From an uncultured Holophaga sp. (GTDB lineage: Bacteria > Acidobacteriota > Holophagae > Holophagales > Holophagaceae): 64,000 bases of DNA. Positions 21,819 to 34,955 of this stretch are shown here, piece after piece. Below the pieces are notes generated by a model. It had not been told where the DNA came from and made no database searches. It worked only from the letters and a program-made list of their open reading frames with translations. Location: positions 1,312,001-1,376,000 of the forward strand of contig OY761614.1 in assembly GCA_963664825.1 (NCBI GenBank), written 5' to 3'. A program made the translations under genes and the position numbers. Position 1 is the first letter of the stretch; the number at the start of each line of letters is the position of its first letter.

Positions 21819-22979
21819 ATGAAGCGCGCCATGACGGGCCACTACGCAGTCCAAACCACGCAGGGCGAGAGCGTCCAGGCCTTCATCCCGAACCCCTTGC
21901 CTCCGGATCCCCCCATCCAATGGACACCGGACCTCCTGGCCGCCCAGCAGCGAGCCGCACTGGCCCTGGGAAGATTGGACGGCGTCACCACGCTGCTGCC
22001 GGACCCCGCCTTGTTCCTATACAGCTACGTGCGTAAGGAAGCCGTGCTTTCCAGTCAAATTGAGGGCACCCAATCCTCCCTCTCTGAACTGATGGCCTTC
22101 GAAAACCAGGGCGCACCTGGGGTTCCCCTTGATGATGTCGTCGAGGTATCCAACTACGTCGCCGCCATGAATCACGGAATCCAACGCCTTCGGGAAGGTT
22201 TTCCCCTTTGCCTCCGCCTCGTCAGGGAGATCCATGAAGTCCTCCTCGCCTCCGGGCGGGGGAGTGCCAAGCAACCAGGTGCGTTCAGGACCAGTCAGAA
22301 CTGGATCGGTGGGAGCCGTCCAGGAAACGCTAAGTTCGTGCCCCCTCCCCACGAGGCTCTTCCCGGATGCTTGAAGGCGTGGGAGGCCTTCCTCCATGGG
22401 GGTCCCGGGATCGCCGACCCTTTGACTCGCGCAGCCCTGGCCCATATCCAGTTCGAGACCATGCACCCGTTCCTGGATGGCAATGGTCGAGTCGGTCGCC
22501 TGATGGTCTCCCTGCTGCTCAGCGCGGAAGGCGTTCTTCGAGAGCCGCTGCTCTACCTCAGCCTTTTCCTCAAGCAGCACCGCGAGACCTACTACGAACT
22601 TCTCCAGTCCGTCCGCATGGAAGGAGACTGGGAGGCGTGGCTGGATTTCTTTTTCCAAGGTGTGACCGAGACTTCGGAGAGCGCCGTCGCCACGGCACAG
22701 CACCTCCTGCGCTTATTTGCCGAGGACCGGAAACGCATCCAGGGAACCGGACGGATTGCGGGTTCTGTTCTCCAGGTCCACCACCACCTCCAGGGACGCC
22801 CCCTTTGTTCAGCCTCAACGATCGGGCTTGCCGAGAATCTCTCCCAAGCAACCGTGAACAAAGCCCTCAAGACACTCGTGGAGATGGGCCTCGTCCGCGA
22901 AATCACCGGAGGGCAGCGGAACCGGCTCTTTGCGTACAGCCAAGCCCTGCAGATCCTGTCGGAAGGTACAGAGGCCTGA
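21819..22979 (+). CDS. Fic-family protein (N-terminal inhibitory motif, C-terminal HTH)
   Basis: HPFLDGNGRVGR catalytic motif; SSQIEG inhibitory (S/T)xxxE(G/N) motif. Confidence 0.93.
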   Translation: MKRAMTGHYAVQTTQGESVQAFIPNPLPPDPPIQWTPDLLAAQQRAALALGRLDGVTTLLPDPALFLYSYVRKEAVLSSQIEGTQSSLSELMAFENQGAPGVPLDDVVEVSNYVAAMNHGIQRLREGFPLCLRLVREIHEVLLASGRGSAKQPGAFRTSQNWIGGSRPGNAKFVPPPHEALPGCLKAWEAFLHGGPGIADPLTRAALAHIQFETMHPFLDGNGRVGRLMVSLLLSAEGVLREPLLYLSLFLKQHRETYYELLQSVRMEGDWEAWLDFFFQGVTETSESAVATAQHLLRLFAEDRKRIQGTGRIAGSVLQVHHHLQGRPLCSASTIGLAENLSQATVNKALKTLVEMGLVREITGGQRNRLFAYSQALQILSEGTEA

Positions 22980-23061
22980 TGGGGTTTCATGCACAACGAG
23001 AAACTCACGGATTCAGAACAGCATCCCCAGCCTCCAGTCCTGACACGGTTCTAGTGGCCCT

Positions 23062-23472
23062 TCAAGATATGCCATTGTCCGCGAGGTATTCCCTCGGAGA
23101 ACGCATGTCCACACCATCCCGGATCGCTTCGGGGAAATGTCCCAGGTTCCCCGTCACCAGCACGGCGCCCGTAGCTTTGGCCAGCGCCAGAAAGACAAGA
23201 TCATCGCTATCGGGTCCGTTCAGCGGCCAGGGAGCCGGTTCTGGCTCATGGAAGGCGACTTGGAGCAGGCGGGGCAGCCATGCCGGAGGAAATCCCTTTG
23301 GCCTGAACTTGGGACGGTTCAGCACCTCCCGGTACTCCGCCGCAATGGAGGCGCACACGTGAACCGGAGTCTGGCGCAACAGCACCTTTTCCACGATGCG
23401 GGCCAAGTCGCTTTCCGGCTTCAGTGCCGCCGATACAAGGATATTGGTGTCCAGGACAAGCGCCCGACTCAC
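23062..23472 (-). CDS. PIN-domain toxin
   Basis: LVLDTNILVSA, DSDDLVFLALA, LVTGN..HF. Confidence 0.9.
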   Translation of the reverse strand: MSRALVLDTNILVSAALKPESDLARIVEKVLLRQTPVHVCASIAAEYREVLNRPKFRPKGFPPAWLPRLLQVAFHEPEPAPWPLNGPDSDDLVFLALAKATGAVLVTGNLGHFPEAIRDGVDMRSPREYLADNGIS

Positions 23473-23768
23473 GCCGTGCGCCCCCGGCCCTTGGCGGCCT
23501 TCCGCGCCGCCCGAATTTCCGCGTCAATCTCATCAGCCGTGAGCTGGTCCAACCCGCTCTCCACGGCCCGAGCCTGGTCCTGGCGCAACGCCGCCACCGC
23601 CGCCAGGCCTTCCGCAAGGTCCAACATCCCCATACGGGTTTCAGGCGTCACCGGGAGCAGCAGGAACTCCTGTTCCCGACCCGCCAGCAGCCATGGTTCC
23701 GTGGAGACACCGGCCCCCAGGGCCTTGGCACCTTCACGTTGGAAATCCCGGAGGGGTATGGTCTTCAT
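23469..23768 (-). CDS. Cognate antitoxin (Phd/YefM-like N-terminus)
   Basis: MKTIPLRDFQRE..., C-terminal LTADEIDAEIRAAR; 4-nt overlap with PIN gene; GGAGG RBS. Confidence 0.75.
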   Translation of the reverse strand: MKTIPLRDFQREGAKALGAGVSTEPWLLAGREQEFLLLPVTPETRMGMLDLAEGLAAVAALRQDQARAVESGLDQLTADEIDAEIRAARKAAKGRGRTA

Positions 23769-23782
23769 GGGGCACCTCCATT

Positions 23783-23809
23783 CCATTGTCGTCGTTTCGG
23801 CGACAATGG
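23783..23809. promoter_or_regulatory. Inverted repeat CCATTGTCG-N9-CGACAATGG, likely TA operator
   Basis: Perfect 9-bp arms just upstream of the antitoxin RBS. Confidence 0.55.
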
Positions 23810-23984
23810 CAACCCGTGAAGGAAACCGGGCCTCACGCCGGTGCTGGAATTCCAGGGCAAGCTGTATTGGCCGGGGATTCACGGGGATGGACGAGGATAA
23901 AAGCAAGCCGGGAATTCGTGAGATTTGATCCCGAAACGTCATCCCCGGCTAAGGGCGGTTGGCACGGTAGCTTGCCATTTTTGT

Positions 23985-24014
23985 GACCTGCCATATATTT
24001 GATTATGGCAGGTC
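23985..24014. promoter_or_regulatory. Inverted repeat GACCTGCCATA-N8-TATGGCAGGTC, likely vapBC operator
   Basis: Perfect 11-bp arms with AT-rich spacer upstream of the AbrB-type antitoxin. Confidence 0.6.
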
Positions 24015-24093
24015 TTGTGGTGGCCTTGCCATGAACATCAACCGTTGTCCCGATGGGACCACCATGCCGCTGATGCTGGCGAAGGTGACACAA

Positions 24094-24345
24094 ATGTCCT
24101 GCTCAAACTTCACTCTTCAGATCGCGCAGGGAGGAAGGGTTGTGATTCCGGCCAAGGCCAGACAAGCGCTGGGGTTGGCTGAAGGGGTACGTGTGACGCT
24201 GGAGGTTTACAAGGATCGCCTCACGATCGTCCCTTTGGATCGGGCTCTCGATGTAATGCTGGCGAAGGCCAGGAGCCTTCTCCAGGGTCCATCGCTTGCA
24301 GACGAGCTGATGGCGGAACGACGCAAGGAGGCTGAACGTGAATAA
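24094..24345 (+). CDS. AbrB/MazE/SpoVT-family antitoxin
   Basis: GGRVVIPAKARQALGLAEG motif; overlaps downstream PIN gene; start uncertain. Confidence 0.88.
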   Translation: MSCSNFTLQIAQGGRVVIPAKARQALGLAEGVRVTLEVYKDRLTIVPLDRALDVMLAKARSLLQGPSLADELMAERRKEAERE

Positions 24346-24727
24346 AGTCGTGCTCGATGCGAGTGCCGTCTTGGCCCTTCTTCAGGGCGAGGAGGGAGCG
24401 AATCGGGTCCGTGATGCGCTGCGCTTGTCGGTGTGCTACATCAGCGCCGCAAACCTTGCCGAGGTCGCGGGGAAGTTGTTTGAGCGCCTCGGTAAGAGGG
24501 ATCAGGTTCGGGAACTGCTCACGATTCCGGGGCTGGAGGTGCTTCCGGTGACGGAAGAGGATGCCTTTCTAGCAGCGGAATTGACGGTCCAAGCGAAGGC
24601 CTTGGGACTCTCGCTGGGGGATCGTTTGTGCCTCGCATTGGGCATGCAGGAAGGGGCGAAAGTGCTCACGGCAGATCAGGTTTGGCTCCAGCTCAAGGTG
24701 GGCCCGAAGGTGGAGTCGATCCGGTGA
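24338..24727 (+). CDS. VapC-family PIN toxin
   Basis: VVLDASAVLALL, ISAANLAEV, GLSLGDRLCLALG, VLTAD. Confidence 0.92.
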   Translation: MNKVVLDASAVLALLQGEEGANRVRDALRLSVCYISAANLAEVAGKLFERLGKRDQVRELLTIPGLEVLPVTEEDAFLAAELTVQAKALGLSLGDRLCLALGMQEGAKVLTADQVWLQLKVGPKVESIR

Positions 24728-24826
24728 GGCTCTTGATTACGGGAGCCAGCTTCCGCTGAACCTATCGGCCTCTCCGTGCCATCCGCGACTCCGCGTGGAT
24801 TTCTCTCGTTTTGATACGGCTCGCCT

Positions 24827-25321
24827 TCACTCCAGTTTCGAGAAGCCTGAAGCATCGGTCAGGAGCCCCTTCCATCCACATTCCATGCTCACGCTCATCT
24901 TCCGGCCGGGGCGCAATATGCCGCTGCGCCAGTCCTGGACAAGGGGCAGGGCCAAGTAGCGCGGCGCTTGGCCGGGGGCCTGGAAGCTCAACACCACCAG
25001 GTCCGCCGTGCGGCGGGGAATGGTGTCCTTCACCCAGCGGCGATAGGCCACGGACAAAGGCAGGGCGTTCACGATCACGTTTTCGTCCGTGGGGTGGAGT
25101 TCCAGCGGTGTCCAGGCCGCTTTCGGCCATCGCCCCCGGGGCCCGGCCCAGACCTTCACCAGCGTCTGAGGCGGCAACTCCTTCACCCTCACCCGCAGGT
25201 TGAGCTTGGACGTGCCCGAACGCCTCGGAGTCTCCCAGGCCACCAGGGCGGCGAGGCTGGCCAGCAGCAGCCCGCACCAGAGCACGTAGAACCAGCGGCG
25301 GCGGTAATGGATGGATTCCAT
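24827..25321 (-). CDS. Hypothetical protein with N-terminal membrane anchor
   Basis: GGAGG RBS, hydrophobic FYVLWCGLLLASLAALVAW, host-like codons. Confidence 0.6.
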   Translation of the reverse strand: MESIHYRRRWFYVLWCGLLLASLAALVAWETPRRSGTSKLNLRVRVKELPPQTLVKVWAGPRGRWPKAAWTPLELHPTDENVIVNALPLSVAYRRWVKDTIPRRTADLVVLSFQAPGQAPRYLALPLVQDWRSGILRPGRKMSVSMECGWKGLLTDASGFSKLE

Positions 25322-25329
25322 GGTTCCTC

Positions 25330-25716
25330 CTAGACTGCTCCAGCCCGCAGAACCGCGGCCAGTTCCTCACGGCTGGCTTCCGCCTTGGCCGCCTTCCATG
25401 CATTCGCATCGAGTTCGCCGAGCCAGGCCACATCTTCGCGGAGCATCACGCCATTCATCTCCAGGGTCACAGCGGCGGCCAGGGTGCCCACCCGCTTATT
25501 CCCATCCACGAAGGGATGGTTGAGGATGAGGGAGAACATGAGCGCGGCCGCGTAATCGAACAGGTCTCCCCCACCGTAAAGGTAGTGGTGCTGGGGCGAA
25601 GCCACCGAGCTTTCCAAGGCCCCAGCGTCCCGGAGCCCATGGGAGCCTCCCCATGCCTCGATCTGGCTGTAATGGAGGGCCTCGATCTCCTCCGAGGTCA
25701 GGAACAGGGGTATCAC
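25330..25716 (-). CDS. Death-on-curing (Doc) family toxin
   Basis: GLRDAGALESS, HPFVDGNKR Doc-type motif. Confidence 0.92.
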   Translation of the reverse strand: MIPLFLTSEEIEALHYSQIEAWGGSHGLRDAGALESSVASPQHHYLYGGGDLFDYAAALMFSLILNHPFVDGNKRVGTLAAAVTLEMNGVMLREDVAWLGELDANAWKAAKAEASREELAAVLRAGAV

Positions 25717-25946
25717 CTGGCGAGACTCTTGAGCACAGGGGCCAGTTTCCGCTCCGTGCTTTCCTTGGCCTTGAGGAACAGAGCCAGACGTTCGGCAGCC
25801 GGAAGCGCCACAGGAGTCACGATCAGCGATTTCCCATCCGTCCGCACCTCGAGCGGCGTCTCAGGCGTGAGGCCAAGCAGTTCCATGACGTTCTTCTCGA
25901 CCACAAGGGCATATCCATTGCCGTGTCGCTTCAGATTGCGGAGCAC
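25713..25946 (-). CDS. AbrB/MazE-family antitoxin paired with Doc
   Basis: LKRHGNGYALVVEK..LGL..TDGKSLIVTP; 4-nt overlap with doc. Confidence 0.85.
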   Translation of the reverse strand: MLRNLKRHGNGYALVVEKNVMELLGLTPETPLEVRTDGKSLIVTPVALPAAERLALFLKAKESTERKLAPVLKSLAR

Positions 25947-26317: not shown

Positions 26318-26333
26318 TGGCACTGCCTTCGCT
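26318..26333 (+). promoter_or_regulatory. Putative sigma54 (-24/-12) promoter of pilin 1
   Basis: TGGCACTGCCTTCGCT: GG-N10-GC spacing with TGGCAC. Confidence 0.6.
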
Positions 26334-26367: not shown

Positions 26368-26790
26368 ATGCGTCATCGCAGCAAGGCTCAAGGGTTCAGC
26401 CTCATCGAACTCCTGCTGGTCCTGGCCATCATCGGCATTATCTCTGGCATCGCCATCCCGGCCTTCCTGGGTCAGCGCCGCCGGGCCCGGGTCATCGGGG
26501 ATGCCATGGCCAACGCCAAGGTAGTCAGCATGCAACTGGAAGCCCGCAAGGCCGATAACGGTGTCTACGGAACTGCCGGGTCGACCTTCACCTGGATCGC
26601 CGGTTCCGCATCCGATCCCACGTTCCTGCCGGGATTCTCCCCAAGCGGCAATAGCAAGATGAACTACAGCCTCGACATCGGCACCAGCGGGCTTGCCTAC
26701 ACCCTGACCGTTGTCGATCCCAGCCTGCCAGGAAGCCCCACGGCCTACCAGACCGATCAGACCGGGGCCGAACTGGCGCGATTACACTAG
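26368..26790 (+). CDS. Type IV pilin 1 (prepilin N-terminal cleavage/methylation motif)
   Basis: MRHRSKAQG|FSLIELLLVLAIIGIISGIAIP. Confidence 0.9.
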   Translation: MRHRSKAQGFSLIELLLVLAIIGIISGIAIPAFLGQRRRARVIGDAMANAKVVSMQLEARKADNGVYGTAGSTFTWIAGSASDPTFLPGFSPSGNSKMNYSLDIGTSGLAYTLTVVDPSLPGSPTAYQTDQTGAELARLH

Positions 26791-26993
26791 CCGCTTATCT
26801 ATGGTGCAGACACTCAGCGTGCTATATAATTTTACAACCAACGACGCTCCTCGACACGTGCCTGCCCCAATGCGTCACTTTTGGCACCCAGGGAAACCGG
26901 TCTTGCGAATCAGGCTTCCATTGACGTGTATCTTTCCCCACAAGATATTGGTTCCCTGCGTTAACATCCCCCCCTTCACTCTTCACCGAACCT

Positions 26994-27009
26994 TGGCCTG
27001 TTTCCTGCA
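26994..27009 (+). promoter_or_regulatory. Putative sigma54 (-24/-12) promoter of pilin 2
   Basis: TGGCCTGTTTCCTGCA: GG-N10-GC, about 40 nt before the ATG. Confidence 0.6.
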
Positions 27010-27047
27010 TTCAGAGCCAATGTTCCATTTCCCCAAAGGAGAACCAC

Positions 27048-27500
27048 ATGAAGAAGCAGTCAGGCTTCACCCTCATCGAGCTGCTGCTGGTGCTCGCCAT
27101 CATCGGCATCATCTCCGCCATCGCCATCCCGGCCCTCCTGGGCCAGCGTGAGCGCGCCAAGGCCAAGGCCACCCAGGGCAACGCCGACGCCATCGCCGGT
27201 GAGCTCGCCCGCATTAACGACACAGCCAAGGAAGCAGGGACGACGCTAAATGCCACTGAGGTGGTTACCTCGGCGCTCCTGCTCTCGAATTACAACACTC
27301 CGAATACAATGAATCCCTACAATGGTGGCAGCGCGCCCTTTGTTTCCGCTGCTACGGCTGGTACCGGCCAAGTAGCTCTCGAAGGCACGGGGTATGTGGA
27401 TCCTACCACCAATCAGTCTTACTCTGCCGTCATTGTCCGAGCCCTTTACCTTCAGGGTGGTGTATCAAAGACCACCACTAAGGTCATCGCACTCGACTAA
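27048..27500 (+). CDS. Type IV pilin 2, probable major pilin
   Basis: MKKQSG|FTLIELLLVLAIIGIISAIAIP; strong AAAGGAG RBS, own promoter and terminator. Confidence 0.92.
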   Translation: MKKQSGFTLIELLLVLAIIGIISAIAIPALLGQRERAKAKATQGNADAIAGELARINDTAKEAGTTLNATEVVTSALLLSNYNTPNTMNPYNGGSAPFVSAATAGTGQVALEGTGYVDPTTNQSYSAVIVRALYLQGGVSKTTTKVIALD

Positions 27501-27518
27501 GTTTTGGGGTATCCCATC

Positions 27519-27551
27519 AAGCACCCCCGGAGCCCTGGGGGTGCTTTTTTG
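27519..27551 (+). terminator. Rho-independent terminator after pilin 2
   Basis: AAGCACCCCCGG-AGC-CCTGGGGGTGC followed by T-run. Confidence 0.8.
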
Positions 27552-27654
27552 TCGATACGGGTGGGGTGCTCACGCATCCTGCCCACTCCATGCGTCGATA
27601 GGTGATCTCACAGAAACCCGCTAACCTTTCCATGGATTCTGCTGTAGGAACGAT

Positions 27655-29970
27655 ATGCCATTTACAAAACTCCTGGGGCTAGGCAATGGGGGCCCTTCCG
27701 GTCAAACATCACTCTTCCGCAAGGATCGGGTATGGCCGCCCTGGACCCTGGGTCTTCTGCTGGCTGTGGCGGTCATTCTGGCCTACTCCAATAGCCTCAA
27801 TAGCCCCTTCACCTATGATGATTACTCGGATGTGTTGGAACAGGTGACAATTCGCCACCTTTGGCCCTTGAGAGATGTCTTCTACCTCCCTGGCAAGGGC
27901 TTCATGAACCGCCCTCTCGTCAACCTCAGTTTCGCCCTTGATTATGCGCTGGGCGGGCTCCGTCCCTTTGCCTTCCATCTCACCAACCTCGCCATCCATA
28001 TCTGCGCCTCCCTGGCCCTCTTGGGCGTCATCCGGCGCAGCCTTTCTCTGCCGGTCTTCGGGGAGCGTTTCAAGGCCCACATTTCGGCGCTGGCCTTGGT
28101 GCCAACAGCCTTTTGGGCTTTGCACCCGCTTGCGACAGAATCTGTGTCCTACATCACCCAGCGCTACGAATCCATGATGGCGCTCTTCGTGCTGTGCACC
28201 TTTTATACGGTGCTCCGAAGCGTGACATCGCCCCGACCTCGCCTATGGCAGGCCTGGGCGGTTCTGAGTTGTCTGCTGGCTTTGGGCAGCAAGGAGGTGG
28301 CGGTTTCCTTGCCTGTGCTGGTGCTACTCTTCGACCGCTTCTTCCTTGCCGGATCCTTCCGGGAGATATGGAGGAAACGGAAACTGCTTTATATCGGAAT
28401 GCTCCTGAGCTGGGGCATCTTCGCCTATATCCAACTGCATGCTGTGCCACGAACCTTCGCGGCCTCTGGGTTCACAATTCCCTGGTGGCGCTATGCCCTC
28501 AACCAACCCAAGGTGATCCTCCACTACCTGCGTCTGGCTGTATGGCCCCATCCCCTGGTCTTCGACTACTTCTGGCGGCCGGAGACGGCTTGGAAACCCT
28601 TGGTGCCGGGGATGCTGATGCTGGCAGTGCTCCTGGGCTTGACCCTTTGGGCCTTGATCCGAAGCCCCCGGTTGGCCTTCCTTTCCATCTTTTTCATGGC
28701 CATCCTCGCCCCCACGTCCAGCGTCATGCCCATCCTTGATCTGGCGGTGGAGCACCGCATGCACTTGCCCCTGGTGGCCGTGATCCTTGCAGTGGTCCTC
28801 GGCCTGTTCGCTCTCCTGATGCGCCTAAAGGCGCGGATCCCGAAGGCTTCCACACTTGCGCGCCACCTGCTCCTGCCTGGGCTGGCCTGCATCCTGGCTT
28901 GTCTAGGGATCCTGACCTTCCTCCGCAACGAGGACTATCGGGATCCCCTTGATCTCTGGCGCAGCGTGACCCTCGCGGCTCCCAACAACCCTCGAGGTTA
29001 CAATAATTATGCATACCAGTTGGCGGAGCGGGGACGCCAGGTGGAGGCGGCTCAGGCCTACGACAAAGCCGTGGCTTTGGCTCCCAACATGGGGCTCTTC
29101 CAGTCGAACTATGGCCTCACTCTTGCCAAGCTTGGGCGCTACCAGGAAGGTCTGGAGCACATGCGCATCGCCGTGAAGTCGGAACCATCCAATTCCAAAT
29201 ACATCAATAACCTTGGATTCGTATTATTAATGAAAGGGTCTTTGGATAATGCCGCTACCTGCTTTAAAACGGCACAGCAGGTCAACCCTCAAGATGAGGT
29301 GTCCCTAGCAGGCTTGGCATCGGTTCTCTATGTGCAAGGGGATTTGGCCAAAGCCCTGGAGTATATTCAGAAAGCCATCAGAATCAATCCTTACGTTCCA
29401 AATCTACGAGAGCATCAGGCTCAGATCCTCATAAAAATGGGAAACACGGAGGATGCCCGCAAGGCCTTCCAGGCCACTATCCGACTCCAGTCCAGCGCAG
29501 AAAAGATCTCAGATATTGGATGGTCCATGCATGCCCACGGTTTGGAGCCCGACGCCTTGGCAGCTTTGCGGCAAGCCCTGGCGATGGTGCCGACCCACAT
29601 TAAGACCCAGATCCGTCTCGCTTGGTTGCAAGCCGCCAGTTCCGATCCTTCCGTCCGCAACGGTACTGAGGCGGTGCGTCTGGCCAAAGCGGTGCTTCAC
29701 ACCCAGCGCCCCATCCGATCTCCAGAAACCTTAGATCTGCTTGCAGTGGCCCAGGCAGAGGCTGGGCGCTTCCCGGAGGCCCAAGCTTCCCTCCGAGAGG
29801 CGCTAGCCAACTCCAAGGACCGGAAGGAGCCCTGGATTCCGAGTTTGGAGGGGCATTTGGCCCTTTTTGAGAAGAACCAGCCGTACCATGAGAATCGTCT
29901 ACCCAAGTCGGCTCACGTTGACCAGCCGGGCGGTTCCGTAATGGTTGCATCCACAAAGAGGAACCCATGA
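27655..29970 (+). CDS. TMTC-like GT-C membrane glycosyltransferase with C-terminal TPR repeats
   Basis: AYSNSL..PFTYDD, RPLVNLSFALDY..GG..P..FHLTN..IH, LHPLATESV, SKEVA, LRLAVWPHPLVFDY, EHRMHLP, RNEDY, followed by several TPRs. Confidence 0.8.
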   Translation: MPFTKLLGLGNGGPSGQTSLFRKDRVWPPWTLGLLLAVAVILAYSNSLNSPFTYDDYSDVLEQVTIRHLWPLRDVFYLPGKGFMNRPLVNLSFALDYALGGLRPFAFHLTNLAIHICASLALLGVIRRSLSLPVFGERFKAHISALALVPTAFWALHPLATESVSYITQRYESMMALFVLCTFYTVLRSVTSPRPRLWQAWAVLSCLLALGSKEVAVSLPVLVLLFDRFFLAGSFREIWRKRKLLYIGMLLSWGIFAYIQLHAVPRTFAASGFTIPWWRYALNQPKVILHYLRLAVWPHPLVFDYFWRPETAWKPLVPGMLMLAVLLGLTLWALIRSPRLAFLSIFFMAILAPTSSVMPILDLAVEHRMHLPLVAVILAVVLGLFALLMRLKARIPKASTLARHLLLPGLACILACLGILTFLRNEDYRDPLDLWRSVTLAAPNNPRGYNNYAYQLAERGRQVEAAQAYDKAVALAPNMGLFQSNYGLTLAKLGRYQEGLEHMRIAVKSEPSNSKYINNLGFVLLMKGSLDNAATCFKTAQQVNPQDEVSLAGLASVLYVQGDLAKALEYIQKAIRINPYVPNLREHQAQILIKMGNTEDARKAFQATIRLQSSAEKISDIGWSMHAHGLEPDALAALRQALAMVPTHIKTQIRLAWLQAASSDPSVRNGTEAVRLAKAVLHTQRPIRSPETLDLLAVAQAEAGRFPEAQASLREALANSKDRKEPWIPSLEGHLALFEKNQPYHENRLPKSAHVDQPGGSVMVASTKRNP

Positions 29971-30932
29971 CCTTGGAGGCCGAGACACCTGAGGGGAAGC
30001 CCCTCATCAGCATTGTCGCTCCCTGTTTTAACGAGGAGGGGAATGTCGAACTCCTCCATGAACGGATCGATGCTGCCATGGCTGGGCTTCCGGGTTATCG
30101 CTACGAGTTGATCTTCATCGATAACAAGTCCCAGGATCGGACGGTCGAAAAGATCAAGGTCATGGCCGCCAAGGACAAACGCGTCAAGCTCATCGTCAAC
30201 GCCCGGAACTTCGGCCATATCCGTTCGCCCCATCATGCCCTCCTCCAGGCCAAGGGCGATGCCGTGGTCATCATCGCTTCGGATCTCCAGGACCCCCCTG
30301 AACTCCTTCCGAAATTTGTCCAGAAGTGGGCGGAGGGCTTCAAAATCGTGGTTGGAGTCAAGACCTCCAGCCAGGAATCCCGCCTCATGTGGCTGGTGCG
30401 CCGAGCCTATTACCGACTTCTTTACCGCATCGCAGATATCCAGGTGGTGGAAAATTTCACGGGCTTCGGGCTCTATGACCGACAGGTGGTGGAGATCACC
30501 CGCCAGTTCGAAGATCCCTATCCATATTTCCGCGGGATCATTTCAGAGATCGGATTCGACCGGGCGGAAATACCTTTTGAGAAGCCCCAGCGCCATCAAG
30601 GCATCACCAAGAACAATTTCTATACCTTGTACGATATCGCCATGCTGGGAATCACCAGCTACTCCAAGCTCCCTATCCGGCTGGCCACCATGGCGGGATT
30701 CGCCTTGGCTTTTTGCAGCCTATTGGTGTCCATTGCCTACTTGGCTCTGAAACTGGTTTTCTGGAACCGCTTCAGCTTCGGTATGGCGCCCGTGCTTATT
30801 GGCCTCTTCTTCTTCTCCTCGGTGCAGCTCTTTTTCATCGGACTCCTCGGCGAGTATGTGGCTGCCATTCATACCCAAGTGATGAAGCGCCCCCATGTCG
30901 TGGAACAGGAGCGGATCAATTTTGATGACTGA
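29967..30932 (+). CDS. GT2 polyprenol-phosphate glycosyltransferase (GtrB/DPM-synthase-like)
   Basis: ISIVAPCFNEE, IFIDNKSQD, RNFGH, SDLQDPPE, two C-terminal TM helices, IGLLGEY. Confidence 0.92.
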   Translation: MTLEAETPEGKPLISIVAPCFNEEGNVELLHERIDAAMAGLPGYRYELIFIDNKSQDRTVEKIKVMAAKDKRVKLIVNARNFGHIRSPHHALLQAKGDAVVIIASDLQDPPELLPKFVQKWAEGFKIVVGVKTSSQESRLMWLVRRAYYRLLYRIADIQVVENFTGFGLYDRQVVEITRQFEDPYPYFRGIISEIGFDRAEIPFEKPQRHQGITKNNFYTLYDIAMLGITSYSKLPIRLATMAGFALAFCSLLVSIAYLALKLVFWNRFSFGMAPVLIGLFFFSSVQLFFIGLLGEYVAAIHTQVMKRPHVVEQERINFDD

Positions 30933-31350
30933 ATCGAAAGGCCTCATTGAATGGTGCCGTCTGCAATGGGATGGCAGCGAGAAGGCCCGATTCCTGGTGG
31001 TAGGGGTCTACAACACGCTTTTTGGGTATGTCGTTTTCGCGGGGCTCTACCTGCTTCTCGGGCACCGAGTCCACTACTTGGTGGTCATGGTGATAGCCCA
31101 CATACTGGCGGTATGCAATGCATTCGTCGGCCACCGCATTCTAACCTTCCGCGTCAAGGACCATCTTCTCAGGGACTTCCTTCGTTTCAACCTCAGTTAT
31201 ACAGGGGTGTTGGTCTTCGGCATCTTTGCCCTTCCCGCCATGGTGGAAGGGCTTCACGCCCATCCCCTCTCGGCGCAGGCGGTCGTGATCGCCCTTACCA
31301 CTCTGGGTAGTTACATCCTGCACAAACGGATTTCCTTCCACCGCAGCTAA
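30925..31350 (+). CDS. GtrA-family lipid-linked sugar flippase
   Basis: RFLVVGVYNT, AFVGHRILTF, SYILHKRISF; 4 TM, 141 aa. Confidence 0.88.
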   Translation: MTESKGLIEWCRLQWDGSEKARFLVVGVYNTLFGYVVFAGLYLLLGHRVHYLVVMVIAHILAVCNAFVGHRILTFRVKDHLLRDFLRFNLSYTGVLVFGIFALPAMVEGLHAHPLSAQAVVIALTTLGSYILHKRISFHRS

Positions 31351-31370: not shown

Positions 31371-31508
31371 CTACTTCTTCAGATCTTCCTTTAAGTTCCT
31401 CGCTCCCTGATGCCCGGAATCGATCTTGAGGGCTTTGTCGGCGGCCTGGCGGGCTTCATCCTTCTGCCCCAAGTCCTTGGGGATCTGCCCCTTCCGCCAC
31501 CAGGTGCC
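31371..31508 (-). pseudogene. Orphan 3' fragment homologous to the C-terminus of the TPR gene at 33323-34405
   Basis: WWRKGQIPKDLGQKDEARQAADKALKIDSGHQGARNL vs WWRKGQILKDLGRKQEAKAAAWEALKLDPKHPGARKL; 43 bp with 4 mismatches (31466-31508 vs 33412-33454). Confidence 0.8.
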
Positions 31509-31685: not shown

Positions 31686-32081
31686 TCAGCCCTTCAAAAG
31701 CACGGCACGCCCCGTCTTGGCGAAACGGGTATCGAAGGTCAGCAGCCTGGAACAGCCCCGATGGCGGGCCACAAGGGCAATGAGGTTGTCGGAAAGCCCG
31801 GTCCCAGGGGTGGCCAGCTCCAGGGCCTCGCGCACCAGGGGCGCGGCTTCCACTTCGATCCCTGCGGTGTTGAGCAAGCGGCCCAGGGCTTCATGTACGC
31901 GGGTGGCATCCCACCCAGGAGCCCCCTTCAGCACCCATCCCAGTTCAACGAATACGAGGATGGGCAGGAAGAGGCCCGGCCCGCTGGAGGCTTCCATGAT
32001 GGCTTTCTGGGCCAGACGGCTTTGCTTGGGATCATCCCCCAGGATGGCCCTGGCCCAGAGATTGGTATCCACCGCGATCAT
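31686..32081 (-). CDS. VapC-family PIN toxin
   Basis: MIAVDTNLWAR, VFVELGWVL, LSDNLI, LLTFD. Confidence 0.9.
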   Translation of the reverse strand: MIAVDTNLWARAILGDDPKQSRLAQKAIMEASSGPGLFLPILVFVELGWVLKGAPGWDATRVHEALGRLLNTAGIEVEAAPLVREALELATPGTGLSDNLIALVARHRGCSRLLTFDTRFAKTGRAVLLKG

Positions 32082-32326
32082 CGGCGGGCACCGGCCCTCT
32101 TGGCGGCCTCCATGTCCTCGAAGCTCATCCGGCGGGCCCCCGGAATGGCCAAATCCCACAGGTCTTCCGCGCGATACTTCACCGGCCCCATGGCGGCCTT
32201 GGCCTGCGTCGAATCCATCTCAAAGCGCACCTGGTCACCCTCATGCAAGCCAAGGGCCTCCCGGATGGCCTTGGGAATCGTCAACTGCCCTTTGCTGGTC
32301 ATGGTTGCGATGGCGGCATGGAGCAC
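32078..32326 (-). CDS. AbrB/MazE/SpoVT-family antitoxin
   Basis: MTSKGQLTIPKAIREALGLHEGDQVRF; AAGGAGG RBS. Confidence 0.92.
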   Translation of the reverse strand: MLHAAIATMTSKGQLTIPKAIREALGLHEGDQVRFEMDSTQAKAAMGPVKYRAEDLWDLAIPGARRMSFEDMEAAKRAGARR

Positions 32327-32513
32327 GGTCTCACCTCCTTACCAGAATACGATTTCGTCCTTACTTGTCCACGGACATCTCCGGGAGAACTTGCTCCCAG
32401 CCCTTCCGCTAGGCAGGGTGGCCTCCTGGCAAACCAGAAAACGCTGCGTGTTCGCTTTTGGCCTGGGCAAGCCGATAATGCAGGCATTGGACTGTACCAA
32501 CGGGAGTGGAATC

Positions 32514-33059
32514 GTGAGCCTGCCTCCATTGAAGCACCCTGGCTACACCCTGGAGGATTGGCAGTCCTGGGAGGGACGCTGGGAACTCATCAATGGCCAG
32601 GCCTTTGATCTGACGCCCGCCCCTTCCACGGAGCACCAGGAGATCTCCTCCAATCTCCATGCCAGGATCTGGAATGCCCTGGTAGCTGCCAAGCGCGGGC
32701 CTGGAGGCGGGGATTGCAAGGTCTTCGCGGCTCCCGTGGATGTCTATCTGGAAGCCGGTGTGGTCCAACCCGATCTTCTGGTGGTCTGCGACCCTGCCAA
32801 GATCAGTCCTCGCGGCATCGAAGGCGCCCCCGATCTGGTGGTGGAGATCCTGAGCCCGAGCACGGCCGGGAAGGATGTCACCCGGAAATGGTGGCTGTAC
32901 GAGGCCGCAGGGGTGCAGGAGTACCTGATCGTCGATCCTGCGGAAAAGGTGGGAAGGCTGCTCCACCTGGTGGCCGGACGCTACGAAGAGGCCGCCCGGG
33001 TGGAATGGGGCACGGTGGTGGCGCTCCTGAGCGGAAGGGTGGAGATCACGCTGGGCTGA
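32514..33059 (+). CDS. Uma2-family (PD-(D/E)XK) putative endonuclease
   Basis: WELING, P...HQ, VVQPDLLVVC, GAPDLVVEILSPST, GVQEYLIVDP; GTG start inferred. Confidence 0.9.
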   Translation: MSLPPLKHPGYTLEDWQSWEGRWELINGQAFDLTPAPSTEHQEISSNLHARIWNALVAAKRGPGGGDCKVFAAPVDVYLEAGVVQPDLLVVCDPAKISPRGIEGAPDLVVEILSPSTAGKDVTRKWWLYEAAGVQEYLIVDPAEKVGRLLHLVAGRYEEAARVEWGTVVALLSGRVEITLG

Positions 33060-33322
33060 GGGATTCCGAGCGCATTCCGCATCCTGGGCCCCTCGGGAAT
33101 AAAGAGGCCAAAAAAGCAGAACGCGAAGAGCGCGAAGGAAGCGAAGACCGCGAATGGGACATCTGGAAAAGGGGAACCTGGTTGTCGGCTTGGCTCAGCC
33201 AGAAAAGTTCATCACGGATGAACACGGATCGATTCACGCGGCGGGCAGGCCCGGATTCATCGGCATTCATCAATGTTGAAACCCAGGACCGATTCACCGC
33301 CGGGTGGGAAGATGAGCCGCCT

Positions 33323-34405
33323 TCACAGCCCTTCCATCAGTTTCCTCGCCCCGGGGTGTTTGGGATCCAGTTTGAGGGCCTCCCAGGCGGCGGCCTTGGC
33401 TTCCTGTTTCCGCCCCAGGTCCTTGAGGATCTGCCCCTTGCGCCACCAGGCGCCGGGATATCCCGCCGATCCTCCCTCCAGGGGCTCCCGCAGCACCTGG
33501 TCCAGGAAGGCCAGGCCCTCCTCCCGGTGCAGGCCCGAACGGGCGGCCAGCTTGCCGAGCTGGAAGCGCACGAGACTGGGGGCATCGGCCTGGCCGAGGG
33601 CCTCCCGGGCGATTCTCCAGGCCTCTTCCGCCTGACCGGCGTCCAGCAGGGCGTCGCAGATGGCCTCCAGGGCCCGGGCGCGTTTTTTCACGGGAGGCAG
33701 CAGGCGCCGGGCCTCCGCGGCCAGGCGACGCTTCTGCTCCCGATCCCCCAGCTGCTTACGCGTCTCCCGGCTGCCCAGGGCATCCAGGTATCCGTAGACC
33801 ACCTCGGGATCCCAGGGGGCCAGGACCAGGGCTCGGCCGAAGAAGGGCTCCGCCTCCTTCCAGCGCCCCTCCATGGAGAGCACCATCCCCTGGAGGAGAT
33901 CCCCCCGGGGGGGGCTGACCCTGCGCAGGCTGGCGGCGCAATCCAGGGCCTTCCGGGTGGAACCGCCCAGGAGGCCCGGGAGCTGCTCATAGGCCAGTCC
34001 CAGGCTCATCCAGGCCGTGACCAGGCGCGGGTCGGCCTGGGTGGCCTCCTCCAGATCATCCAAGGCGCCCGAGGCATTGCGAAGGCTCGAGAAATTCCGC
34101 TGCTGCACGGCGGTACCCGCCCGGGCGAGCCCTCGGGCCAGGATGGCATCGGCCAATCCCCCTTGAAGGGACAGGGCCTTCTCGGCAGCCCCCAGGCCTT
34201 CCCCGAAGCGCTGGAGGGAACTCAGGGCCTGGGACTTGGCCGCCCAGGCCAGGGAGTTGCGGGGATTGGCCTGGATCTGGGCCTCCGCTTCCCCCAGGGC
34301 TTTGAGGTAGCGCCCGGCCTCCAGATCCGGCCTGGGATCGTAAGCAGCGGCCACCAGGGCCGTCGCGGCAAAGAGAGGAATGAAGCGGCGAAAATACATG
34401 GACAA
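33323..34405 (-). CDS. Secreted TPR-repeat protein
   Basis: Signal-peptide-like N-terminus, multiple TPR-like helices. Confidence 0.75.
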   Translation of the reverse strand: MSMYFRRFIPLFAATALVAAAYDPRPDLEAGRYLKALGEAEAQIQANPRNSLAWAAKSQALSSLQRFGEGLGAAEKALSLQGGLADAILARGLARAGTAVQQRNFSSLRNASGALDDLEEATQADPRLVTAWMSLGLAYEQLPGLLGGSTRKALDCAASLRRVSPPRGDLLQGMVLSMEGRWKEAEPFFGRALVLAPWDPEVVYGYLDALGSRETRKQLGDREQKRRLAAEARRLLPPVKKRARALEAICDALLDAGQAEEAWRIAREALGQADAPSLVRFQLGKLAARSGLHREEGLAFLDQVLREPLEGGSAGYPGAWWRKGQILKDLGRKQEAKAAAWEALKLDPKHPGARKLMEGL

Positions 34406-34409
34406 CCCT

Positions 34410-34955
34410 TTAACCCAGCTTGATTTCCAGGCTCCCCTCCAATAGCCGGAGGGTGCCCTCCCATTCCACCCGGGAGACCGTCTGGTAGATGCCGTTGCCC
34501 CCCAGCAGGAGGAGCTCCGCTCGGCGTTCCTCGGGATAGACGATCAGGTACTCCGGCACACCGGCGGCCTCGTAGCACCAACGCTTGGTGGTGAGATCCT
34601 TCTGCCCGGTGCTGGGGCTGAGGATCTCCACCACCAGATCCGGGGCGCCCTCGATGCCGCGCTCGGAAATCTTGGCGGGATCGCAGACCACGAGCAGATC
34701 GGGAACCACGACGCCCGTACCCAGGAACGCATCCGTGGGGGCGCTGAAGAGCCGACAGCTGCCGCCCCCCTTGCGCTTGGCTTCCAGGAGCGCGCTGCCG
34801 ATGGCCACGTGAAGGTCCGAAGAAATACTCTGATGCGCGATATTCGGGGAGGGCGTCATGTCATAGGCCACACCCTCGATCAGCTCCCAGCGCCCCTCCC
34901 AGGACTTCCAGTCCTCGAGGGTATAGCCAGGATGCTTGAGTTCAGGGAGGGGCAT
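34410..34955 (-). CDS. Uma2-family putative endonuclease (paralog of 32514-33059)
   Basis: LKHPGYTLEDW.SWEGRWELI, PDLLVVCDPAKIS.RGIEGAPDLVVEILSPST. Confidence 0.92.
   Translation of the reverse strand: MPLPELKHPGYTLEDWKSWEGRWELIEGVAYDMTPSPNIAHQSISSDLHVAIGSALLEAKRKGGGSCRLFSAPTDAFLGTGVVVPDLLVVCDPAKISERGIEGAPDLVVEILSPSTGQKDLTTKRWCYEAAGVPEYLIVYPEERRAELLLLGGNGIYQTVSRVEWEGTLRLLEGSLEIKLG

Follow-up and report, generated by a model that had tools for sequence, protein, structure and literature searches.

A 64,000-nucleotide stretch of DNA from an uncultured Holophaga sp. (assembly GCA_963664825.1, contig OY761614.1, positions 1,312,001 to 1,376,000; hereafter the window) carries two pilin genes followed by a three-gene cassette for a predicted TMTC-like glycosyltransferase with tetratricopeptide repeats (TPRs), a GtrB-like sugar synthase and a GtrA-like membrane protein. 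On balance, this cassette seems to glycosylate the adjacent major type IV pilin with a CDP-derived deoxy-sugar that is delivered via undecaprenyl phosphate. Gene order, predicted fold, sequence motifs and the linkage, across the whole branch, to genes for pilin, GtrB and CDP-sugars form the basis of this assignment. The locus is real and well linked to pilin, and its donor can be predicted more specifically than in an earlier, sequence-only reading of the same DNA; the function itself is a predicted one. What appears to be new, judging from gene content, is the association, within one branch of the transferase family, of a pilin-linked TMTC-like enzyme with genes of the CDP-dideoxyhexose or acyl-branched-sugar type.

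All five open reading frames (ORFs) were confirmed on the + strand in the order proposed by the sequence-only reading: pilin 1, pilin 2, GT-C/TPR transferase, GtrB and GtrA (Table 1). Neighbouring cassette genes share 4 and 8 bases. The GtrA-like gene has an alternative upstream ATG at 30895 that would give a protein of 151 aa. The proposed identities of the GtrB- and GtrA-like proteins agree with their Pfam matches, and the latter gene is the only PF04138 match in the genome. One Logan contig, possibly derived from the source sample itself, covers the whole stretch with zero differences. Third-position GC in the three cassette genes (0.70–0.72) is lower than in the nearby asnS (0.90), which is in line with an acquired cassette; plasmid and phage collections searched with the GT-C membrane domain yielded no homolog, and there was no Rfam match between window positions 25000 and 33000.

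The transferase and its kinship to TMTC proteins

The sequence-only reading hung on a GT-C fold, and this is what the structural model of the membrane domain (pLDDT 95.8) gave. Comparison with 48,161 chains placed GT-C proteins in all top 20 positions (Z 9.7–20.3; the next, unrelated match had Z 5.7), with AglB as the best match (Z 20.3, rmsd 4.9, 323 aligned residues) and Pmt2 at Z 19.0. Judged from the model, the membrane domain thus has the GT-C fold. Foldseek ranked ArnT first (E 2e-3) and returned no match to the transferase model at E <= 0.001; the membrane domain alone had no match among Pfam families and PDB sequences, and a profile search of the PDB found only TPR proteins among the best 60 of 454 matches. 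Eleven membrane helices (residues ~29–428) can be read from the model, helices 7 and 8 being joined by a long loop (a simple hydropathy scan gave nine segments), and Pfam TPRs extend from about residue 420 onward. The same number of helices and a long loop at this place have been described for TMTC proteins (PMC7801869).

The first-loop DD motif noticed earlier corresponds to D55-D56, in the loop that follows the first membrane helix, each of which is present in 121 of 123 and in all of 56 aligned rows; D55, D56, R86, P87, H157, R170, E172, K213, E214, D304 and R368 are invariant in the 56 close homologs. When matched by position to the descriptions in PMC7801869, without alignment to a TMTC sequence, the TMTC-type motifs present are D55/D56, R86-P87, H157-P158 (HPxxT), E172, K213 and R368 before helix 10. 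Other motifs depart from the TMTC pattern: SHKSYRP keeps RP only, DY replaces DW and, in this copy, His370 replaces the M7 Tyr. There was no direct match to PF08409 (DUF1736) in the transferase or elsewhere in the genome. A PF08409 protein from a relative (G030), which scores above the cut-off for that family, matches the transferase-family profile over the full domain (E 1e-26), and its DUF1736 stretch aligns to loop 4 of the transferase. The Atlas gives a eukaryotic DUF1736 cluster a score of 0.93 with 196 shared features, the nearest clusters being bacterial, and some sources label homologs 'protein O-mannosyl-transferase'.

On these sequence grounds the predicted transferase is to be regarded as a TMTC relative, TMTC-like in its working, whose strict membership in GT105 is not established. 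The earlier designation as TMTC-like thus stands by its motifs and by the kinship through G030 and the Atlas, with the missing direct DUF1736 match and the departing motifs on the other side, whereas the label 'eukaryote-type' is misleading because the family comprises 44,780 clusters at 50% identity and the nearest Atlas clusters are bacterial. Prokaryotic homologues of TMTCs had already been remarked on (PMC7801869). An assignment to the TMEM260/GT117 type was rejected: PF11028 was found neither in the domain nor in the genome, and the Atlas score of 0.81 is at lead level only. General decay of the gene was likewise rejected, with deviations in 4 of 127 highly conserved columns and a median of 3 (range 0–10) among homologs.

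Linkage to the major pilin and to sugar genes

Distances to pilin genes were scored for 208 homolog rows from fetched loci, after removal of the window and one duplicate; other duplicates and tandem paralogs were kept. A pilin gene lies within 3 kb of 14 of the 19 homologs with at least 50% identity, of 1/55 at 40–50% and of 13/134 below 40%; where at least 3 kb of flanking DNA was available on both sides, the respective counts are 5/9, 0/24 and 10/76. Trees of 191 and 49 rows, both midpoint-drawn and unrooted, place the window transferase in one branch of 18 proteins (17 rows, plus that of the nearest relative, G106) with SH-aLRT support of 100. For 16 of these 18, a pilin gene lies no more than 0.5 kb away; of the other two, L075 lacks flanking DNA and L159 is a true exception. 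The branch enzyme is found in 8 of the 133 genomes of the family, representing four genera, adjoins different types of pilin (four label changes on the pilin tree) and may be arranged in tandem with the pilin, divergently from it or flanked. Because both the pilin types and the arrangements vary, the link between enzyme and pilin is more than one inherited block. We conclude that the link between this branch and the major pilin gene is strong and branch-specific: the neighbourhood analysis suggested by the sequence-only reading bears out its expectation for the branch and not for the family at large. The nearest rows outside the branch come from Planctomycetia and have no pilin nearby. Transfer from Planctomycetota was considered and is not established, the trees being midpoint-drawn and unrooted.

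Pilin 2 is likely to be the major type IV pilin. Its model (pLDDT 89.7) combines a long N-terminal helix with beta strands; Foldseek gave no match to it at E <= 0.001 (the top row was a Neisseria pilus, E 0.16), and its identity therefore rests on Pfam, the promoter and secondary structure. Pilin 2 also resembles a major pilin in having its own promoter motif and, after its stop codon, a strong terminator-like hairpin. The promoter motif, of the sigma-54 type, is found 70–77 nt before the start of the mature major pilin in 15 of the 15 branch loci examined and in 9% of random 170-nt windows. Pilin 1 is likely a second or minor pilin. Its orthologs in relatives often come directly after pilT-pilC, and several relatives have pilT-pilC-pilin 1 followed by the major pilin; pilT and pilC of the window genome are located elsewhere, away from the pilin locus.

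The donor is likely a CDP-deoxy-sugar, and neither mannose nor glucose, as judged from gene context. In G106, whose enzyme, GtrB and pilin are 67%, 80% and 79% identical to those of the window, a single-strand run of ~11 kb, at about G106:C1:379500-390650, reads pilin1-pilin2-GT-gtrB-gtrA-rfbF-rfbG-like-rfbH-methyltransferase-radical SAM-epimerase. RfbF and RfbH of this run score over their curated cut-offs, the RfbG-like dehydratase is under its cut-off and the methyltransferase is C-methyltransferase-like. With the sugar genes in one gene run, mannose is unlikely to be the donor. Homologs of RfbF, RfbH, the thiamine pyrophosphate (TPP) enzyme or the epimerase, all of the CDP-dideoxyhexose or acyl-branched-sugar type, are found beside 10 of the 17 other branch members, and four of the seven without them had less than 5 kb of DNA to examine. 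The window genome has a complete-looking cluster of this kind, which encodes a GT2, a TPP enzyme, a reductase, a DHQS-like protein, an aldolase/citrate lyase, RfbF, RfbG, RfbH and an epimerase, with RfbF, RfbG and RfbH all passing curated cut-offs; the same gene set has been described for the acyl-branched sugars erwiniose and caryophyllose (PMC9306805).

The GtrB-like GT2 scores best against the NCBIfam models for PgfS (197 bits) and ArnC-type enzymes (119 bits), both under cut-off. Of the 133 family genomes, nine have a close ortholog, and six of these nine also carry the branch enzyme; the hypergeometric p of 3e-7 for this overlap is overstated, given that linked genes and related genomes enter into it. 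A major pilin gene lies no more than 7 kb from eight of the nine GtrB orthologs, and the ninth is carried by a short contig that gave no pilin match. Mycobacterial GT2s resembling DPM synthase have been proposed to make polyprenol-linked donors (PMC4403928).

Predicted pathway, known systems and alternatives

From these observations we infer the activity of the cassette, the pilin as its acceptor, the donor, the role of the TPRs and any protection from phages. The GtrB-like enzyme would transfer one sugar from a nucleotide donor to undecaprenyl phosphate and the GtrA-like protein would aid the movement of the sugar-lipid to the periplasmic side of the membrane. There the GT-C/TPR enzyme, whose DD loop and TPRs would face the periplasm, would pass the sugar to Ser/Thr of the pilin, which the TPRs are predicted to hold. 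The sugar would likely be a derivative of a CDP-3,6-dideoxyhexose with strain-dependent tailoring by thiamine-dependent branching, methylation or radical-SAM chemistry; the window genome could supply it only from its unlinked CDP-sugar cluster (Table 1). A broader version is more tentative and, in our view, falls somewhat short of probable: that the Holophagaceae recruited a TMTC-like branch to their major pilin, with one CDP-derived sugar (3,6-dideoxy, acyl-branched or methylated) passed from undecaprenyl phosphate directly to Ser/Thr. The possible swapping of this sugar between strains, as a camouflage of the pilus against phages, belongs to the same tentative scheme; pilin glycans are known to block pilus-specific phages in Pseudomonas.

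A number of observations weigh against glycosylation of the adjacent pilin. Most members of the transferase family are not pilin-linked, the literature searched holds no experiment on any of them, and the related genomes compared here are non-independent samples. The exception within the branch (G124) has the enzyme and sugar genes ~260 kb from its pilins, and the pilins of G059 and G060 are 60–62% identical to pilin 2 in genomes from which the branch enzyme is absent; therefore, the pilin 2 type does not require the enzyme. The other cassette genes are less constant: three GtrB orthologs occur without the branch enzyme, and GtrB is found near the enzyme in only 8/17 other branch loci and GtrA in only 3/17 at the strict cut-off, with a fourth at 38%. 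In the window itself, a terminator-like hairpin divides pilin 2 from the cassette, and position 370 of the transferase, Tyr in 121/123 and 55/56 rows and, in TMTC models, close to the donor phosphate (PMC7801869), is His (codon 28762–28764). The CDP-sugar cluster of the window genome is ~310 kb from the cassette and has its own GT2, its RfbG shares only 32% identity with the G106 protein, and RfbH is present in 7 of 8 same-genus genomes, only one of these with the cassette. Given this distance, the separate GT2 and the near genus-wide RfbH, the cluster may serve lipopolysaccharide (LPS) only. Finally, the Ser/Thr richness of pilin 2 was dropped as evidence for glycosylation: the count of the sequence-only reading is exact (25 in 144 mature residues, 17%), but such a content is ordinary, with 11–18% in the 12 prepilin-motif proteins of the genome and 8–22% in the major pilins of relatives.

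The closest precedent is TfpW of Pseudomonas aeruginosa/paraeruginosa group IV (strains Pa5196 and PA7), which modifies Ser/Thr of the pilin (bioRxiv 10.1101/2020.04.19.049825). By its published description, which was compared here in place of a sequence alignment, TfpW is a GT-C enzyme with 11 predicted helices, a first-loop DDX motif and a C-terminal periplasmic TPR; it is encoded immediately behind pilA, uses a lipid-linked donor and required a GtrA-like helper when rebuilt in E. coli. Thus, the architecture of the cassette is already known, and the suggestion of the sequence-only reading that this type of pathway was uncharacterised does not hold. The two systems differ in the proline-rich YX6PFX7P motif of TfpW, which is missing here (no Y-x6-P-x5..8-P in residues 1–450), and in the donor: TfpW uses a D-arabinofuranose donor made with DprE1/DprE2 and polymerises the sugar, whereas the GtrB-type synthase and CDP-sugar genes of the present system suggest a single deoxyhexose. 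The animal TMTC1-4 proteins (CAZy GT105; PMC7801869, PMC11292533) share the 11 helices, the TPRs and most catalytic motifs, but here mannose is unlikely to be the donor, and a pilin instead of a cadherin domain is the likely acceptor; recruitment of substrates by TPRs is itself a proposal for TMTCs (PMC11292533). GtrABC (PMC11127046), the streptococcal GtrB/PgtC2 and Pgf systems likewise combine a GT2 synthase, a flippase-like membrane protein and a GT-C enzyme; the present cassette differs from them in the TPRs of its GT-C enzyme and in its tie to pilin, the classical targets for glucosylation being O-antigen or Ser/Thr-rich disordered regions. The clusters for yersiniose (YerE/YerF), erwiniose and caryophyllose (MMAR_2331-2333) have the TPP enzyme, reductase, aldolase/citrate-lyase and CDP-keto-dideoxy-glucose genes that are found together in the CDP-sugar cluster of the window genome and some of which adjoin many branch enzymes (PMC9306805, PMC4403928). 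The final place of such a sugar is LPS or lipooligosaccharide (LOS) in the known systems, whereas here it would be used on a pilin. TMTC, bacteria and pilin appeared together in no paper found by our literature search, with most subscription papers and supplements outside its scope.

A classical three-component decoration system, in which the GT-C enzyme would attach a side-branch sugar not to the protein but to a glycan, either O-antigen or one placed on pilin beforehand by a separate oligosaccharyltransferase (OTase), is an unlikely alternative with several points in its favour. GtrABC systems typically alter O-antigen in the periplasm (PMC11127046), LPS and LOS are known to contain dideoxy and acyl-branched sugars (PMC9306805), the genome carries one gene of the Wzy_C ligase/OTase type and two further PMT_2 matches, and in G124 the enzyme is encoded in a polysaccharide-type cluster distant from the pilins. 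However, TPR tails, which TfpW also has, are proposed to recruit proteins in TMTC and TMEM260 (PMC11292533), and modification of LPS gives no reason for the proximity of 16/18 branch members to a pilin gene.

We consider somewhat less likely still a general O-glycosylation of envelope proteins, with several periplasmic or surface proteins as targets, as must hold for most of the family, and the pilin locus merely collecting genes for surface modification. It would fit the lack of pilin genes near any of the 24 fully flanked homologs at 40–50% identity, the sister branch in Planctomycetia without pilin linkage and the streptococcal GtrB/PgtC2, which glycosylate many Ser/Thr-rich proteins. Set against this, the branch is patchy (8/133 genomes) and alternates with other genes in the pilin slot, which fits a dedicated exchangeable modifier better than a housekeeping system. 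The least probable alternative, which we doubt strongly, is an orphaned or weakened copy in this genome, its sugar genes lost by rearrangement and its transferase damaged by Tyr370His, so that the pilin is unmodified even though relatives glycosylate theirs: where G106 has sugar genes after gtrA, the window has a gene remnant and toxin-antitoxin/Uma2-type genes instead, and His370 is unique among the 123 and 56 aligned rows, but the three cassette frames are intact, the 4/127 deviations are normal, the GtrB motifs match those of its orthologs and RfbF, RfbG and RfbH pass curated cut-offs elsewhere in the genome.

The family of ~45,000 clusters related to human TMTC has no function-tested bacterial member in the literature searched. 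Under pilin glycosylation by the cassette, the branch offers specific predictions both for the acceptor, which would be the adjacent pilin, and for the donor pathway, and the G106 run could be moved to a laboratory host, which would make TMTC-type catalysis and substrate choice by TPRs testable in bacteria. If the more tentative scheme proved true, a bacterial TMTC relative would for the first time have a named substrate and donor, and a class of sugars known from LPS would be O-linked to a protein. A dideoxy or branched sugar as the donor would widen the known chemistry of protein O-glycosylation. The exchangeable genes of the pilin locus may represent phage-driven camouflage in a little-studied group.

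Other features of the pilin locus and its relatives

Table 1. Coordinates of the pilin locus in the window and of related features in other loci
Feature	Position	Strand	Remark
Pilin 1, 140 aa (131 mature)	26368..26790	+	PF07963, 33 bits, above cut-off
Pilin 2, 150 aa (144 mature), predicted acceptor	27048..27500	+	PF07963, 39 bits, above cut-off
TMTC-like GT-C glycosyltransferase with TPRs (predicted), 771 aa	27655..29970	+	fold model, motifs, Pfam TPRs
GtrB-like GT2, predicted polyprenyl-phosphate sugar synthase, 321 aa	29967..30932	+	PF00535
GtrA-like small membrane protein, predicted flippase or helper, 141 aa	30925..31350	+	PF04138
Sigma-54-type -24/-12 motif, pilin 2	26994..27008	+	72 nt upstream of mature start
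Sigma-54-type -24/-12 motif (GG-N10-GC) 5' of pilin 1	26318..26332	+	pattern match, weak
Intrinsic-terminator-like hairpin, 12-bp stem and T run	27519..27546	+	between pilin 2 and transferase
Remnant copy of the 3' end of a TPR gene (33323-34405)	31385..31508	-	74% identity over 127 nt to 33331-33454
CDP-sugar cluster, acyl-branched (caryophyllose/erwiniose-type), complete-looking	G000:C1:1653971-1663817 (L227:8972-18818)		window genome
~520-680-aa membrane family	L060:10069-12027, L061:3732-5774, L063:10874-12436, L064:7096-9054, L065:7276-9219, L066:5727-9548, L041:14751-16694, L045:5213-7123, L243:8555-10510, L244:5660-7615		candidate pilin modifier
~550-aa Q-x-D-E membrane family	L045:9590-11269, L062:4753-6357, L064:9877-11526, L065:10233-11885		probably GT-C

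The hairpin directly after the pilin 2 stop codon has the longest stem among such sites in the region, where the counts from sigma-70 and terminator scans are not clearly above those in shuffled sequence. The motif upstream of pilin 1 is weak, as the pilin 1 orthologs of the branch loci have no sigma-54-type motif at the matching position. On the right, the cassette is bounded by the remnant of the TPR gene, which, from its sequence identity, we take as a rearrangement scar that marks the cassette's edge. Dense lookalikes of Fic, PIN/VapC, Doc/AbrB-type toxin-antitoxin and Uma2-type genes, judged from the appearance of their sequences, flank the pilin locus (window positions 21819-25946 and 31686-34955) and suggest an insertion hotspot.

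In relatives, the slot next to the major pilin holds a variety of genes, including an O-antigen-ligase-type gene (G012), gtrA with an STT3-like gene (G037), distant PMT_2/TPR proteins (G009, G015 and G029), GT2s, methyltransferases and unnamed membrane proteins. The G037 locus (L068:3183-9258) has a pilin followed by gtrA, the STT3-like gene (TIGR04154, 114 bits, under cut-off), a membrane protein and an FAD oxidoreductase, and may be a different candidate set for pilin glycosylation. Three distant GT-C/TPR genes are found beside 3–4 pilin genes in each of L033:7419-14415 (G033) and L036:7224-14577 (G029), one of the G029 copies being split into two ORFs.

Two unnamed membrane families recur in such loci. 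The first, of ~520–680 aa and with no Pfam or NCBIfam match, is encoded directly 3' of the major pilin in many Holophagaceae and is a candidate uncharacterised pilin modifier; one member has a G-L-D-G-L-R-A-D stretch that, we assume, recalls sulfatase/phosphoform transferases. The second, of ~550 aa with Q-x-D-E after the first helix, is probably another GT-C; its genes are divergent and upstream of major pilins and are followed by GT2, gtrA or methyltransferase genes.

Pilin 2 is reversed in G004, and an inversion switch was considered for this reason and rejected: the intervening gene encodes a fused MFS/spermidine-synthase-like protein, with no recombinase. Such fused genes lie between or beside pilins at L031:4984-7191 (G004) and L041:16726-18000 (G015), and a further one, by resemblance only, at L247:10879-13131 (G124). 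An orphan second gene of the major-pilin type, 61% identical to pilin 2, is found in G093 (G093:C133:74561-75004), some 25 kb away from the pilin locus; no genes for glycosylation are evident next to it.

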